Assembly: GCA_021735655.1 (NCBI GenBank)
Contig: JAIPGM010000002.1
Coordinates: 224,001 to 288,000 of the forward strand
Reading direction: 5' to 3'
From: Candidatus Omnitrophota bacterium
GTDB lineage: Bacteria; Omnitrophota; Gorgyraeia; Duberdicusellales; 4484-171
DNA: 64,000 nt
The position numbers and the translations under genes are program-made. The notes beneath the pieces are model-generated. The model saw only the letters and a program-made list of their open reading frames with translations, did not search any database and was not told the DNA's origin. This document shows, piece after piece, positions 7,727 to 64,000 of the stretch. Position 1 is the first letter of the stretch. Every line of letters begins with the position of its first letter.

Positions 7727-8267
7727 GTTAAGGCCAGGAATGGCTATTATTTATAACGATCAGCTTTATTTATTAATTAACTGCGAGCACACCAAAATTG
7801 CTAGAGGCCCGGCCTTCTGTCGAGCAAGGTTAAGAAATTTAAAAACTGATCAGGTGCTTGAGCGAACTTTGCGTGATTCTGACAATGTTGAACCGGCTTT
7901 TATTGAAAAACGTAAACTTCAATATCAGTACCATCAAGACGACCAGTACCACTTTATGGACTTAGAAACCTATGAAGATCTTTTATTGCATAAATCGCGA
8001 ATTGCCGATAAATCTTTTTGGCTAGTAGACAACCTGGAGCTGGTCGGTCTTTTTTACGATAATAAACTTATTGATTTAGAATTTCCGCCTTCTTTAATAT
8101 TTAAAGTTACTGAAACTGATCCTGGATTTAGAGGCGATACAGTTAAACAAGGCACTAAGCCGGCAACACTTGAAACCGGATTGGTTATTAATGTGCCGAA
8201 TTTCATAAATAGCGGTGAAAATATTAGGGTGAATACAAAAACTAAGGATTATTTGGGCCGAGCATAA
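7713..8267 (+). CDS. efp: Elongation factor P
   Basis: LLINCEHTKIARGPAFCRARLRNLKTDQ matches the EF-P KPGKG-loop region, and the protein has the three-domain EF-P length. Confidence 0.85.
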   Translation: MVIGELRPGMAIIYNDQLYLLINCEHTKIARGPAFCRARLRNLKTDQVLERTLRDSDNVEPAFIEKRKLQYQYHQDDQYHFMDLETYEDLLLHKSRIADKSFWLVDNLELVGLFYDNKLIDLEFPPSLIFKVTETDPGFRGDTVKQGTKPATLETGLVINVPNFINSGENIRVNTKTKDYLGRA

Positions 8268-59463: not shown

Positions 59464-60384
59464 TTAAATTTTTATCTTAATGCCGTCGGCAATAACTGTT
59501 GGTTTTAAAAAAACAAAATCCAAATGAGACGGGCAACTTACACGGCCACCAAAAGATTTATTATTGCCAAAGGCAATGTGAGCAGTGCCCAAACTCTTCT
59601 CATCTTCAAGAATGCTTCCAGTTACCTTCGCCTTAGGATTAAGACCAATGCCCAATTCAGCGACGTTAAGAATCTTTCTACCGTATAAATGCACTAAAGG
59701 CCTCATCTTTGCTATCGGAACATTCTCAGCATAACCATTTTTTATTTTTATTTTAAGCGACTTTTTTAATTTACCAAGAAATGGAGCACTGCCATCAATA
59801 ACTAACTGCCCATTAGCAGTTCCCTCTAGAGGACTAATACAAGCCTCACCGGCCGGTAAATTTCCGAAAGCACCGGATTTTATATATAAGCCGTTATCAC
59901 TAAAACCGCGCCGACCCTTAACTGACATTGTTAAATGAGTTCCGGCTTCAGTGTAGACTTCAATCTTTTTTGCTTTAGTCAAAGAATTGGCTAACTTTGT
60001 TGTTTTTTTTGCCAAATTTGAATAATTAAGACAAATAGCGCGATTAAGCATCGCCAGAGTTACCCCCGGAAGACTCCCAATGCGCGTCCCATACTTTTTA
60101 GAAGCAATTTTACGAGCCTTAGTGTGAGAAAGGGACATCGAAGTAAATAACAATGCGGCATCGGCTTTCTTTAAGGCTTCAGCGACCACAGCCGGAGGTT
60201 CTTGGCCGTGCATTTGGCGAGGTTTAATCAAAAAACAACTGCTTTCTATCCCTTGTGACTGCGCTAAACGATAGAACTCATAAGCAAGTTTACAAAGCTT
60301 ATCATCACACACAATCAAAAGCTCTTCTGATTTTCTCAAACCAAGACATTTTCTCGTTATGGTTTTGACGATTTGCTTTTTCAC
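59464..60384 (-). CDS. M29 (aminopeptidase T/AmpS)-like protein
   Basis: GNLPAGEACISP and AHIAFG resemble M29 family motifs. The track start at 60462 has no Met codon match, so a GTG at 60382-60384 is proposed. Confidence 0.4.
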   Translation of the reverse strand: MKKQIVKTITRKCLGLRKSEELLIVCDDKLCKLAYEFYRLAQSQGIESSCFLIKPRQMHGQEPPAVVAEALKKADAALLFTSMSLSHTKARKIASKKYGTRIGSLPGVTLAMLNRAICLNYSNLAKKTTKLANSLTKAKKIEVYTEAGTHLTMSVKGRRGFSDNGLYIKSGAFGNLPAGEACISPLEGTANGQLVIDGSAPFLGKLKKSLKIKIKNGYAENVPIAKMRPLVHLYGRKILNVAELGIGLNPKAKVTGSILEDEKSLGTAHIAFGNNKSFGGRVSCPSHLDFVFLKPTVIADGIKIKI

Positions 60385-60395
60385 TAAATTTAGTG

Positions 60396-60518
60396 TTAGT
60401 CGAAGGCTTGAGAAATGCCGTAGGCTGCAGCAGCTGAGATGCCGGCTCCGATAAGAGCGCAACCCTGCATAAGCGGTAATAATACTAAAATTGAAATGAT
60501 AACAATTCTTTTAATCAT
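60396..60518 (-). CDS. 40-aa lipoprotein-like signal-peptide ORF (not in track)
   Basis: The translation is MIKRIVIISILVLLPLMQGCALIGAGISAAAYGISQAFD*. A strong RBS ggaggaaaagagg lies upstream, and LMQGC is a lipobox. Confidence 0.25.
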   Translation of the reverse strand: MIKRIVIISILVLLPLMQGCALIGAGISAAAAYGISQAFD

Positions 60519-60559: not shown

Positions 60560-62056
60560 CTAGAAAAAGAGATCTCTTTCGCCTTCTTTAATCCTTCGAT
60601 AATAACTCATGAATTGGTCAAAAACCTGAGGGATGTTTTTGCGGACTTCCTCTATTTCTTTCGTGATTACTTTCTCAGCTATATTTTTAGTTTCCTCGCT
60701 GGCAAAATCATCTAACCATTCACGAAAAGTTAAAACAGCATTTAATTTACAAAATTTACCTTCTTGACCAGTTTTAAGTAACTCCATAATGCATTCACCC
60801 GTTCTGCCGCAGCGATAACCAGCAGTACAAAAAGAACTGATTACCCCCATTGAGGCAAACTCTCTAATCATCTCATCTAGGCTACGAGTATCAGCCAAAA
60901 TAAATTGCTGTCGGGGGCTGTCTTGAGTTTTACTCTGATCGCTGTATGAACCAATTCCTATTTTGGTAGAAGCATCAGTTTGAGTTATTCCTAGCCTGAT
61001 TGAATCTCTCTTCATCTGAGGGGTTTCCCGACAAGTAATAATTAGACCAGTATGAGGCACAGCCAGTCTAAGCACAGTAATTAACTTTTTAAACTGCTGA
61101 TCCGAAACCTTATATTTTAAATTATCATTAAAAGGCGTGTTTTCTGCCGGTTCAAGGCGTGGAAAAGATATCGTATGAGCTCCGACACCAAATTTATCCT
61201 CTAATTCACGATTATGCGCAACCAAGCTCATTAGCTCAAACTTCCAATCGTAAAGCCCAAATAAAACACCCAAGCCAACATCATCAACCCCAGCCTCAAA
61301 GGCACGATGCATCGCATAAAGTCGCCAGAAGTAATTTCCTTTTATTGTAGTTGGCGGATGAATAGTTTTATAGGTGGTCTTATGGTAAGTCTCTTGGAAA
61401 ACTTGATAGGTACCAATTCCGACATCTTTTAGACGACCCAATTCCTCTATCGATAAGGGCGGAGCATTCACATTTACCCGACGAATCTGACCAACGCCAT
61501 TTTTGGTTTTCTCCCGAACATTATAAATAGTACGAATTGAATCAACCATGTAATTTATATCATTCGAAGGATGCTCTCCATAAACGACAATTAAACGTTT
61601 ATGACCAATCTTACCAGCCAAAACAGCGGTTTCCTTCTCAACCTGCTTTAAGCTTAAGACTCGGCGTTCACTCTTTGTGTTAGATCGTCTGAAACCACAA
61701 TAAAGACAATCATTAACACAATAATTCCCAAGATAAAGCGGAGCAAAGGTGACGATTCGATTGTCATAAACCTTTCGCTTCACCCTTAAGGCGCATTCCT
61801 TCATCAATTCTAATGTTTTAGAATCAGTTACCCTTAAAAGGGTTGCCGTCTCATCAAGAGTTAAAGTTTTAATCGCTAAGGATTTATTTAAAATGTCTTC
61901 GACTTCTTTGGAATCAGGCTCCTGAGTGCATGATAATTTCGTAAAGATTTCTTTCTGAGGAATAAAATCCTTACCCTCAATCATATAACGCTCAATTTGG
62001 TCGCGCTTTATACGTTGAGACTCCCAACTCTGAAATTTATTAGTCTTAATTAACAT
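60560..62056 (-). CDS. hydG: Radical SAM enzyme of ThiH/HydG family; size and Cys-rich C-terminal extension favour [FeFe]-hydrogenase maturase HydG
   Basis: The radical SAM motif reads CVNDCLYCGFRRSN. The 498-aa length is well above the ~377 aa of ThiH. A C-terminal Cys cluster FCTAGYRCGRTGEC...FC is present. Confidence 0.55.
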   Translation of the reverse strand: MLIKTNKFQSWESQRIKRDQIERYMIEGKDFIPQKEIFTKLSCTQEPDSKEVEDILNKSLAIKTLTLDETATLLRVTDSKTLELMKECALRVKRKVYDNRIVTFAPLYLGNYCVNDCLYCGFRRSNTKSERRVLSLKQVEKETAVLAGKIGHKRLIVVYGEHPSNDINYMVDSIRTIYNVREKTKNGVGQIRRVNVNAPPLSIEELGRLKDVGIGTYQVFQETYHKTTYKTIHPPTTIKGNYFWRLYAMHRAFEAGVDDVGLGVLFGLYDWKFELMSLVAHNRELEDKFGVGAHTISFPRLEPAENTPFNDNLKYKVSDQQFKKLITVLRLAVPHTGLIITCRETPQMKRDSIRLGITQTDASTKIGIGSYSDQSKTQDSPRQQFILADTRSLDEMIREFASMGVISSFCTAGYRCGRTGECIMELLKTGQEGKFCKLNAVLTFREWLDDFASEETKNIAEKVITKEIEEVRKNIPQVFDQFMSYYRRIKEGERDLFF

Positions 62057-62698
62057 CTAACTTCCCTGCTTTACAAAAAATATTAAACTCTCTAACTCAC
62101 AAGCCATATCAACGTTAGAAACAAATATATTATCAGGAACTTTCAAGGCAATTGGAGCGAAGTTAAGTATTCCCTTAATATTTGAATCGATTAACTGGTT
62201 AGCTATGTCTTGAGCTACTTCAGGCGGCGTAGCTATTATTGCTATTTTTATTCCATCTTTTTTAATCATTTCACTCAAATTATCAATAGCCTGAACTACG
62301 ATACCTTTTTTTGTTTTACCAATCTTTTTCTGATCATTATCAAAAATTGCAGTAATTTTTATATTAAACTTTGAAAAACCATCGAACCCCAACAAGGCCC
62401 CACCGACTCTACCTAGGCCTACCAAAGCAATATTCCAATCAATATGGGTTCCGACTATTTTTTGGATTTGTCCAATTAAAAAATCTACGTTATAGCCCAC
62501 ACCGCGCTTGCCAAATTCACCAAAATAAGACAAATCCTTTCTAAACTGAGACGGAGTTACGTTTAAAAACTTAGTTATTTTATCCGAAGAAATAACTTCA
62601 ACTCCCTGCTTTTTTATTTTTCGTAAGTTACGTAAATACAGAGTAAGCCTTCTGATCGTTTCCAAAGAAAAATGTTTCTTGTCTTTACTGTTTTTCAT
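62057..62698 (-). CDS. rex: Redox-sensing transcriptional repressor Rex
   Basis: The N-terminal winged helix IRRLTLYLRNL is followed by the Rossmann motif IALVGLGRVGGALL. Confidence 0.8.
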   Translation of the reverse strand: MKNSKDKKHFSLETIRRLTLYLRNLRKIKKQGVEVISSDKITKFLNVTPSQFRKDLSYFGEFGKRGVGYNVDFLIGQIQKIVGTHIDWNIALVGLGRVGGALLGFDGFSKFNIKITAIFDNDQKKIGKTKKGIVVQAIDNLSEMIKKDGIKIAIIATPPEVAQDIANQLIDSNIKGILNFAPIALKVPDNIFVSNVDMACELESLIFFVKQGS

Positions 62699-64000
62699 CA
62701 GATACTCTAGTATCCCGAGCTATACCTAAATCGGTAGGCGCCCGGCCTAAAGATTTAAGTAAATTAATAGTCTCAGTAATCTGATCATTAATCTCCGCTT
62801 CGCCATAGGCCTTATTAGGATAAATTGCATAATACTTTCGATATTTACGCGGAGTTAAATTGAGCATTACCGAATTTCCACCCGAAGACAATCCTTTCTT
62901 GCGTGCCTCTAAAGATAAGGTCTCAAAGGCTGTGGTTATAAGAATTTTAGCCGCTTCTGGATCGATTAAACGAGCCAAAGCAAGGTTTTTTAAAACTTCT
63001 TCTTCAGAAGGAGCTTTGCAATTGGCCAAGAGACTATTCGGGTGAGGCAAAAATGGCCCAAATGAGTACATCTCAGAGCCCAAAGCCTTAGTTAGATAAA
63101 TATCATTTATCGTATCTTGATTAGTTTGACCAGGCAAACCAATCAAGGCACCAGTCATAACTAAATACCCTAATTCATGGGCTTTTTTTAGATGATCCAG
63201 GCGACTATCTAAAGTTTGGCCAGGATGTAATTTCTCATAGATTTTAGGATTTGAAGTTTCAAAACGCATCAACAATGCTCTTGCCCCAGCCTGATAAAGC
63301 TTAAGCAATCCATCAAGCCCGACTTCACCAAAGCTTATACAAATCAAAACTGGAACCGTTTCTTTAATTTTTCTTATAATTTCCGCTAGATCATCTATGC
63401 TATAGTGTGGGTCTTCTCCCGATTGCAAAACTAAAGCCTGGAAACCATACTCTTTAACGGCACCAACTGCCGTCTCAATGATTTCCGCCGCTGACATTCG
63501 ATAACGCATAAGATTCTGGTTGTCAGCTGAAATACCACAATATTGACAACTCTGCTTACAAAAATTAGATATTTCGATTATCCCATGAATACAACATGAA
63601 TTTTTATGGTACTTTTGACGCAAAAAGTTAGCGGTTCGATAAAGAATATCTTGAGCCTCAGGCTTATCTAACTTAAGTAAATAAAATAACTCTTCTTTAC
63701 TCAATTGAATATTTTCTAAAGCTTTATCTAAAATAAGACTTAGCTGCCTGTCGATATTTTTTTTGCTAAGATCCAAGCGAGACAATCGTAAGTCCATATC
63801 CTGAAGTTCGAAAAAAAGCTCATTCCAAGCTGCCAAGGTCTCCTCAGCCTCCTTTGGGGAAACTTTTTTAATTACAAACCCGCCTTGAGCCGACACATAA
63901 TCACCGGGTTTGATATCATAAAACTCATTGATTGCTTTTTTTTCTTCACCAAAGTAATCAACCAGAACGGTTTTCCCAACTATTTCTTTTACCTTGCCAG
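62685..64000 (-). CDS. BioB/HydE-like radical SAM enzyme, 5-prime partial; reading frame continues upstream through a HypC-like domain to the window edge
   Basis: The radical SAM motif reads CKQSCQYCGI. Upstream of the GTG at 63896 the same frame stays open and translates LARVKEIVGKTVLVDYFGEEKKAINEFYDIKPGDYVSAQGGFV, which is HypC/HupF-like, with GDYV..GF and a trailing EAEE. Confidence 0.5.
   Translation of the reverse strand, partial: GKVKEIVGKTVLVDYFGEEKKAINEFYDIKPGDYVSAQGGFVIKKVSPKEAEETLAAWNELFFELQDMDLRLSRLDLSKKNIDRQLSLILDKALENIQLSKEELFYLLKLDKPEAQDILYRTANFLRQKYHKNSCCIHGIIEISNFCKQSCQYCGISADNQNLMRYRMSAAEIIETAVGAVKEYGFQALVLQSGEDPHYSIDDLAEIIRKIKETVPVLICISFGEVGLDGLLKLYQAGARALLMRFETSNPKIYEKLHPGQTLDSRLDHLKKAHELGYLVMTGALIGLPGQTNQDTINDIYLTKALGSEMYSFGPFLPHPNSLLANCKAPSEEEVLKNLALARLIDPEAAKILITTAFETLSLEARKKGLSSGGNSVMLNLTPRKYRKYYAIYPNKAYGEAEINDQITETINLLKSLGRAPTDLGIARDTRVSDEKQ

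Follow-up and report, generated by a model that had tools for sequence, protein, structure and literature searches.

A HypC–radical SAM fusion protein encoded in the [NiFe]-hydrogenase gene clusters of Omnitrophota and other bacteria

Introduction

The HypC/HybG/HupF chaperones (PF01455, TIGR00074; structures 2Z1C, 3VYR, 2OT2 and 3D3R) are stand-alone proteins of 75–100 amino acids (aa) which begin with MCxxxPG, including an essential Cys2, fold as an OB-fold followed by a C-terminal helix, and are encoded together with hypA and hycI behind the structural genes of [NiFe] hydrogenases. The protein described here shares this start (seen in its homologues), this fold and this gene neighbourhood but adds a radical S-adenosylmethionine (SAM) enzyme of 350 aa, and it has an invariant Gln where the chaperones keep a His (H51 in E. 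coli). It is encoded by a fusion gene, hypC::hydE', which together with rex and hydG makes up the end (60560–64000, minus strand) of a stretch of 64,000 nucleotides from a Candidatus Omnitrophota bacterium (contig JAIPGM010000002.1, positions 224,001–288,000). This whole stretch is referred to below as the window.

HydG in general makes an [Fe(Cys)(CO)2(CN)] synthon from tyrosine, and TmHydE processes the synthon and relays the iron species. The HydEF protein of Chlamydomonas is a precedent for maturases which are fused in one polypeptide and hand over an intermediate. HydEF joins HydE with its [FeFe] partner HydF, whereas the present fusion joins a HydE relative with the [NiFe] chaperone HypC, and sometimes with HydG too. 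Among described proteins HydE (TIGR03956; TmHydE structures 3IIZ and 7O1O) is the best match of the second domain in sequence and fold, and has in common with it the CX3CX2C motif, equivalents of Met224 and Met291, and a frequent pairing with HydG. Canonical HydE carries V-H-I-R on strand beta-1 where the fusion has an invariant CCxH, and unlike canonical HydE the fusion never adjoins hydF and sits in [NiFe], not [FeFe], operons. An accessory supply of diatomic ligand to HypC-held iron, beside the core Hyp proteins, is described for HypX (PMC6802093, PMC12134894) and resembles the route proposed below. HypX has an unrelated fold and chemistry, employing formyl-tetrahydrofolate and coenzyme A under oxic conditions, whereas the fusion system is based on radical SAM enzymes and belongs to strict anaerobes. 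A 2025 review (PMC12134894) makes no mention of radical SAM enzymes or HydG. No paper describing a HypC-HydE fusion, or HydG or HydE in [NiFe] maturation, was found in the searchable literature, in which the family is apparently undescribed, though it is present in public databases.

The fusion is real, widespread among uncultured anaerobes and linked to [NiFe], not [FeFe], hydrogenases. An earlier note on the window, made from the letters alone, had read these genes as an [FeFe]-maturase operon, which suits hydG alone; the fusion itself belongs to a [NiFe] gene cluster. We suggest that it might serve as a [NiFe] maturation factor which would pass a HydG/HydE-type Fe-CO/CN unit to HypC, a reading to which we would give an even chance.

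The fusion gene and its distribution

The hypC::hydE' gene lies at 62685–64000 (minus strand) as an open frame with its stop at 62685 and no other up to the window edge (438 codons counted from 63998), and its product possesses PF01455 and PF04055 motifs. The gene order, the in-frame fusion and the overlaps between the genes were given in the earlier note and are borne out by the coordinates of the open reading frames (ORFs). The fusion gene overlaps rex by 14 nucleotides (62685–62698), and there is zero gap between rex and hydG (62057/62056). The window copy is without its first six codons, predicted to be MCYAIP, and the fragment starts with GKVKEI; judging from the homologues, the true ATG should be found 18 nucleotides past position 64000, beyond the edge as the earlier note had supposed. 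In a search covering 5.8 billion proteins, 111 of the 120 homologues listed start with MCYAIP, which is the HypC signature with Cys2; the GTG at 63896 was thus called as a start owing to the cut at the window edge.

Among the matches listed in this search were more than 100 protein clusters (at 90% identity) of 432–445 aa with both motifs, drawn from NCBI, JGI, ENA and Logan. The fusion homologues, P0001 included, are 60–80% identical to the window fragment over 97–100% of its length and span the junction. A library reduced to representatives at 50% identity contains about 20 with the fused architecture. When one genome was scanned for each GTDB species, the complete fusion appeared at 80 loci, in at least 80 species-level genomes, the majority from Omnitrophota. 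Other fusion-bearing genomes are labelled Atribacterota, Fibrobacterota, Riflebacteria/Ozemobacteraceae, Margulisiibacteriota, Spirochaetota, Auribacterota and Elusimicrobia. One of them, Atrimonadaceae strain G-SL-SR-0-11 (CP184673.1, locus L078), may be a cultured isolate, since its record carries no "MAG" prefix. A HypC-radical SAM fusion had been called unprecedented in the earlier note; with these numbers that description falls.

The same note had asked whether a missed stop codon or a frameshift might join a separate hypC to a radical SAM gene. This explanation has practically no probability left: the architecture is uninterrupted in more than 100 independent clusters and 80 species genomes, with over 100 homologues aligning across the junction, and the helix at the junction is highly conserved. 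A sequencing or assembly artefact is thus refuted.

The databases name the fusion variously as "HypC/HybG/HupF family," "HydE," "radical SAM protein" or biotin synthase. Even if its domains should act independently, the family would matter for annotation, since public naming is inconsistent, and its HydE-like match should not be counted as evidence for an [FeFe] hydrogenase.

Two metagenome-assembled genomes (MAGs; L082 and L085) each carry two fusion copies, 94–96% identical. We considered these as paralogues and rejected the idea, since at that identity they are probably strain duplicates.

The HypC domain

The HypC-like OB-fold domain (63825–64000, minus strand) was recognized by its match to Pfam HupF_HypC (PF01455; 37.7 bits against a gathering cut-off of 28.5, fragment residues 1–58 on profile positions 7–65), which confirms the resemblance pointed out in the earlier note. 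The full-length protein of locus L012 scored 48 bits with this profile. The window copy, measured without its first six residues, scored 27 bits with TIGR00074 (cut-off 48). With the six absent residues restored, a phmmer comparison to the solved HypC 2Z1C gave E = 4.6e-12, and the domain aligns with solved HypCs 2Z1C, 3D3R and 2OT2 across the whole OB-fold and helix. Cys2 of the HypC motif is present in the homologues and in the window copy lies outside the window.

The position of E. coli HypC His51 is a Gln in the window (GDYVSAQGGF, 63876–63905), where the solved HypCs have His. The same Gln is found in 72 of 72 aligned fusions and in 78 of 78 ORFs from the loci. His51 may coordinate iron in the HypC-HypD complex, and its exchange abolishes activity (PMC12134894).

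The OB-fold is joined to the second domain by a helix (WNELFFELQDMDLRLS, 63780–63827, minus strand) in which W64, E66, F68, F69, L71, Q72, D75 and S79 are invariant or nearly so (numbering of alignment A1). In the AlphaFold model of homologue P0001 (predicted local distance difference test 91.3, predicted template modelling score 0.90) residues 54–78 form a single long helix. The model thus predicts a rigid two-domain arrangement with a continuous linking helix.

The radical SAM domain

The remainder of the protein is a HydE-family radical SAM (beta/alpha)8 barrel (62751–63728, minus strand; TIGR03956 and Foldseek). It carries the CX3CX2C motif CKQSCQYC (63537–63560), whose three cysteines (C153, C157 and C160 in A1) are invariant, and on strand beta-1 the fusion-specific CCxH motif (63585–63596; C141, C142 and H144, also invariant). 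Fragment residues 91–416 scored 249 bits with TIGR03956 HydE; scores with other radical SAM profiles were 165 (PylB), 100 (BioB), 66 (ThiH) and 65 (HmdB). The HydE-like character suggested in the earlier note therefore holds in so far as the domain is much nearer to HydE than to BioB or ThiH, but the score falls below the equivalog cut-off of 254.6 and the protein is not an ordinary HydE. Fusions from three phyla also scored under this cut-off (227.6, 246.8 and 244.8 bits).

Canonical HydE proteins of 335–366 aa are encoded on the same contig as the fusion in loci L033 and L089, where they sit in Rex-HydCBA-HydF-HydG-HydE clusters and score about 360 bits (359.6 in L033). In L089 both systems lie within 20 kb: an [FeFe] set in the order Rex-HydC/B/A-TM1266-like-ammonia lyase-HydF-HydG-x-HydE is followed by [NiFe] group 3b genes, HycI, HypA and the HypC::HydE' fusion. 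The fusions cluster together in a neighbour-joining tree, separate from canonical Omnitrophota HydE and from TmHydE. Canonical HydE has 128 columns with a conservation of 90% or more; in the fusions 66 of these have the same residue and 20 are conserved but different. The group-specific positions include TmHydE H52 (Cys in the fusions) and R54 (His), so that the invariant CCxH replaces V51-H-I-R54. The auxiliary-cluster cysteines are absent from the fusions. On these sequence comparisons we regard the domain, which we term HydE', as a specialised paralogue of the [FeFe] maturase HydE.

Foldseek superposed the model on TmHydE 3IIZ with a template modelling score of 0.93 and a root-mean-square deviation of 1.4 Å at 37% identity. 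The equivalent of Met224 lies in the window within EMYSFGPF (63051–63074; M316 in A1, nearly invariant) and that of Met291 within NSVMLN (62859–62876; M384, invariant). In TmHydE the Fe(CO)2CN species has Met224 as a ligand and is moved with the help of Met291 (PMC10114646). Given this fold match and the retention of both methionines, HydE-type chemistry in the fusion is plausible.

Between hydG and canonical hydE in loci L089 (9721–9978) and L090 (9732–10004) there is a gene for a protein of 85–90 aa without a Pfam family in the gene tables. An N-terminal extension of about 105 aa on the canonical HydE proteins P0147, P0284, P0299, P0311, P0324, P0361 and P0364 is a fused form of it. Possibly this protein is an unrecognised partner domain of HydE, in the position which HypC holds in the paralogue.

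The genomic neighbourhood

ORFs were called and clustered in all fetched loci, 84 of which were analysed (78 at species level). Upstream counts refer to the 67 species-level loci with at least four upstream genes, and downstream counts to the 67 with at least two downstream genes. A [NiFe] large-subunit gene occurs near the fusion in 55 of 67 loci, in 52 of them upstream and on the same strand. The canonical Cys motifs of the large subunit are present at the N-terminus in 60 of 62 and at the C-terminus in all 62. Of the 12 loci without this gene, at least six have other hydrogenase genes or Mrp genes in the sequence fetched for them; no such gene was seen in that of L043, L044, L053, L057 and L083. 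Usually hycI and hypA directly precede the fusion, and this arrangement extends over three types of [NiFe] hydrogenase (Mrp-linked group 4, group 3b-like and small Ech-like group 4) and MAGs labelled with about ten phyla.

From 50 kb on, the window is syntenic with six loci (L001–L006) which, upstream of the fusion, encode HypA, HycI, a ferredoxin, Mrp subunits and an Mrp-linked group 4 [NiFe] hydrogenase. By this synteny its last 3.4 kb should be the distal end of an Omnitrophota [NiFe]-hydrogenase gene cluster. The expectation that hydF and [FeFe] structural genes would follow beyond the window edge finds no support in these relatives. Motif scans and BLAST against the locus proteins found no HydA, HydF, HypD, HypE, HypF, HypB or [NiFe] large subunit in the window itself.

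An [FeFe] HydA gene is present in four of the 84 loci (three of the 78 at species level) and HypB in five. HydF, HypD, HypE and HypF occur in none of the fusion loci analysed, nor does a second hypC. Two ORFs which had been taken for stand-alone HypC (L022 and L032) are membrane proteins sharing only an MCYTVP start, and ORFs of HypD or HypE size near the fusion in L022, L032, L056 and L023 were assigned by Pfam to unrelated proteins; all were rejected.

The absence of an adjacent hydF, together with the Gln which replaces His51 in all fusions, might be taken to mean that the HypC domain has left [NiFe] maturation and has become a carrier or scaffold for the [2Fe] precursor in [FeFe] maturation, as a substitute for HydF. 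We consider this very improbable, for the fusion is found almost constantly right behind the [NiFe] structural genes, hycI and hypA in loci with no other hypC, and L089 possesses its own HydF.

In most Mrp-type and 3b-type loci the hypA gene beside the fusion codes for only 80 aa (for example L001, 9267–9509); the N-terminal MHE nickel motif is kept and both CxxC pairs of the zinc domain are absent. Fibrobacterota-type loci have an ordinary HypA of 110 aa with the zinc motifs. In the Ech-like loci L058–L082 (for example L070, 8216–9301) the large subunits end with DPCISCTER, without a C-terminal extension, and there is no hycI protease gene, yet hypA and the fusion are present. A conserved ORF of about 240 aa without a Pfam match lies beside the fusion or among hyp genes in five loci (L029, 7415–8128; L039; L087; L023, 18053–18814; L026).

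Rex and transcription

The rex gene (62057–62698, minus strand) specifies a redox-sensing repressor of 213 aa. Its identity, proposed in the earlier note, was confirmed with NF003995 (257.6 bits, cut-off 126) and by the presence of PF06971 (Put_DNA-bind_N; winged-helix N-terminus) and PF02629 (CoA_binding; Rossmann NAD(H) domain). A look-up of the exact sequence of the window Rex gave no recorded match. Rex is encoded within three genes of the fusion in 17 of the 67 loci. No Rex operator TTGTGAAnnnnTTCACAA with up to two mismatches was found between 60 and 64 kb of the window, where the start of the operon lies outside. This operator, perfect or with one mismatch, precedes rex and the first [NiFe] 3b gene in L036, L055 and L027 (perfect in L036 and L055), and Rex operators lie between the fusion and rex in L008 and L031. 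From the boxes ahead of rex and of [NiFe] 3b operons that end with the fusion, Rex probably controls those operons, and it would couple expression of the gene group to the NADH/NAD+ ratio.

Scans for promoters and terminators in the gene group of the window gave no signal above chance. From the gene overlaps alone, hypC::hydE', rex and hydG look co-transcribed.

HydG and triple fusions

The hydG gene (60560–62056, minus strand) codes for a tyrosine lyase/Fe(CO)2(CN) synthon synthase of 498 aa, of the Omnitrophota "type A." Its reading as HydG was upheld by TIGR03955 (448.5 bits, cut-off 312; residues 27–497 on profile positions 7–469). It is about 50% identical to the solved HydG 4WCX over its full length (E = 4e-128) and has the radical SAM motif CVNDCLYC (61697–61720). 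The C-terminal auxiliary-cluster motif is a variant (C-TAG-YRC-GRTG-E-C...C, 60749–60829, in alignment with 4WCX and 4RTB): of CX2CX22C the first and last cysteines are kept, the middle one is Gly, and further cysteines stand at +6 and +12 (CTAGYRCGRTGEC), unlike 4WCX and 4RTB, which read CTACYR at this motif. A His in the window HydG aligns with what we take to be the position of the dangler-iron ligand in 4WCX.

The variant is kept in about 30 relatives, including those at 8217–9713 of L089 and 8239–9735 of L090. These belong to the canonical hydF-hydG-x-hydE clusters of both loci, so the subtype appears to be a normal lineage variant and not a specialisation. For the same reason HydG with this motif is probably functional, and the motif would imply a different ligation of the cluster which builds the Fe(CO)2(CN) synthon. 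Some fusions adjoin a HydG of about 462 aa with the canonical motif.

Unlike hydG in its known setting, the window hydG follows rex behind a [NiFe] cluster, and in L012 HydG is itself part of the fusion. HypC-HydE'-HydG triple fusions, with both HydG subtypes among them, were seen in L012 (921 aa, on the chromosome-level sequence CP070797.1), P0122 and P0131, which points to repeated fusion and to a functional connection of the three modules. In 28 of 67 loci a hydG gene stands no more than three genes away from the fusion.

The 39 of 67 loci without a nearby hydG leave room for the idea that HydE' aids [NiFe] maturation independently of a HydG synthon, either by generating a ligand such as CO from a small metabolite or by modifying HypC or the large subunit in the manner of BioB/PylB/HmdB-like enzymes. 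The twenty group-specific substitutions, the new invariant CCxH, the lost auxiliary-cluster cysteines and the matches to PylB and HmdB (165 and 65 bits) would agree with such chemistry. We think it improbable, as HydE clearly surpasses all other matches in both sequence and fold, the equivalents of the HydE-specific Met224 and Met291 are conserved, and adjacency to HydG, with fusion to it, is far above chance.

P0145 (803 aa), from the library of 50% representatives, is a HydE-HydG fusion without HypC, in which CX3CX2C occurs twice and the CxxC motif of HydG has its canonical form. The glycine cleavage system feeds the dithiomethylamine bridge in [FeFe] maturation. A gene for glycine-cleavage T protein is found a few genes 3' of the fusion and hydG in L032 (15747–16868), a placement which may be coincidental.

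A possible route to the [NiFe] site

We might picture the pathway as follows. Starting from tyrosine, HydG would build its synthon, [Fe(Cys)(CO)2(CN)]. The HydE' barrel would take this up and strip the cysteine backbone by means of the 5'-deoxyadenosyl radical, leaving a mononuclear Fe-CO/CN species which would be moved to the bottom of the barrel; we infer this step from the conserved fold and the equivalents of Met224 and Met291. Rather than being given to HydF, the species would be captured by the N-terminal cysteine of the tethered HypC. HypC, whose role as a chaperone is established, would then hand this unit on to the neighbouring [NiFe] hydrogenase, whose large subunit is still in the apo form, a delivery suggested here by operon position, after which HypA would insert nickel and HycI would cleave the C-terminus. 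The pathway might supply the CO ligand only, alongside HypD, HypE and HypF, or might replace these proteins. Operon position, paralogy to HydE, the iron-handling residues, the coupling to HydG and the lack of hydF at the loci examined together lead us to this model.

In its broader form the proposal is that the Fe-CO/CN unit of the [NiFe] site may arise at least partly through radical SAM chemistry taken over from the [FeFe] pathway, passing from a HydG synthon through a HydE paralogue and a fused HypC to the large subunit. It would apply to Omnitrophota and to MAGs labelled Atribacterota, Fibrobacterota, Riflebacteria and others. We advance this tentatively, at somewhat less than an even chance. 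If true, it would give an anaerobic source of the CO ligand for the [NiFe] site which in some lineages might replace HypD, HypE and HypF, and iron-carbonyl chemistry that is known from [FeFe] hydrogenases alone may have a part in [NiFe] assembly. The fusion offers a concrete, cloneable candidate for the route from tyrosine via Fe-CO/CN to HypC.

The two halves of the protein might instead have independent jobs, the HypC half serving the adjacent [NiFe] hydrogenase with HypD, HypE and HypF, and the HydE' half acting as HydE for an [FeFe] hydrogenase elsewhere, with HydG and HydF, the two having been fused as neighbours under Rex. In L008, L029, L031 and L041 the fusion has a [NiFe] operon on one side and an [FeFe] hydrogenase cluster under Rex control on the other, which favours this reading, and Rex boxes stand ahead of rex and [NiFe] operons alike. 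Both hydrogenases are present in L008 and L089; HydF, HydE and HydA are common in Omnitrophota, some genomes of which have full Hyp and HydEFG sets; and the methionines typical of HydE are retained. A HydF TIGRFAM hit is also listed for the single-cell genome of O. fodinae, one of those with the fusion (L026), whose lack of HypB–F hits, at 65% completeness, would speak against independent jobs (PMC10066038 supplement). We nevertheless think this explanation unlikely, while far from negligible. The radical SAM domain is a distinct paralogue which stands beside canonical HydE on the same contig, the architecture is kept over many phyla and three [NiFe] types, HydA is adjacent in only three of 78 species-level loci and HydF in none, and the recurrent triple fusion with HydG retains the HypC domain. 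In addition, Omnitrophota MAGs with only a 4g or 3b [NiFe] hydrogenase have been described (Williams et al., PMC8542988), in a study whose supplements hold no maturase data.

To return to the transfer of an Fe-CO/CN unit to HypC, several points weigh against it. The evidence consists throughout of association and sequence. The [NiFe] genes would lie beyond the window edge, as placed by synteny, the stem of the fusion clade in the neighbour-joining tree is very short (0.007), and the loci without a nearby hydG include all those of the Fibrobacterota-type Ech-like group. In L089 the fusion is accompanied by a complete [FeFe] system, so that the radical SAM domain could simply be a second HydE. 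Two Omnitrophota genomes (104 and 231) have full Hyp and HydEFG sets according to the PMC10066038 supplement, which gives per-genome lists for a few genomes. Finally, HydG makes Fe(CO)2(CN) and the [NiFe] site needs Fe(CN)2(CO), so that an extra ligand exchange would be required.

Other features next to the gene group

Just 3' of hydG an ORF of 40 aa (MIKRIVIISILVLLPLMQGCALIGAGISAAAAYGISQAFD, 60396–60518, minus strand) has a lipoprotein-like signal and a lipobox, and a 40-aa gene was called at the matching position in L001–L006. The adjoining ORF at 59464–60462 is 332 aa long as called; its homologue in L004 has 306 aa, and its real start is therefore probably further downstream.

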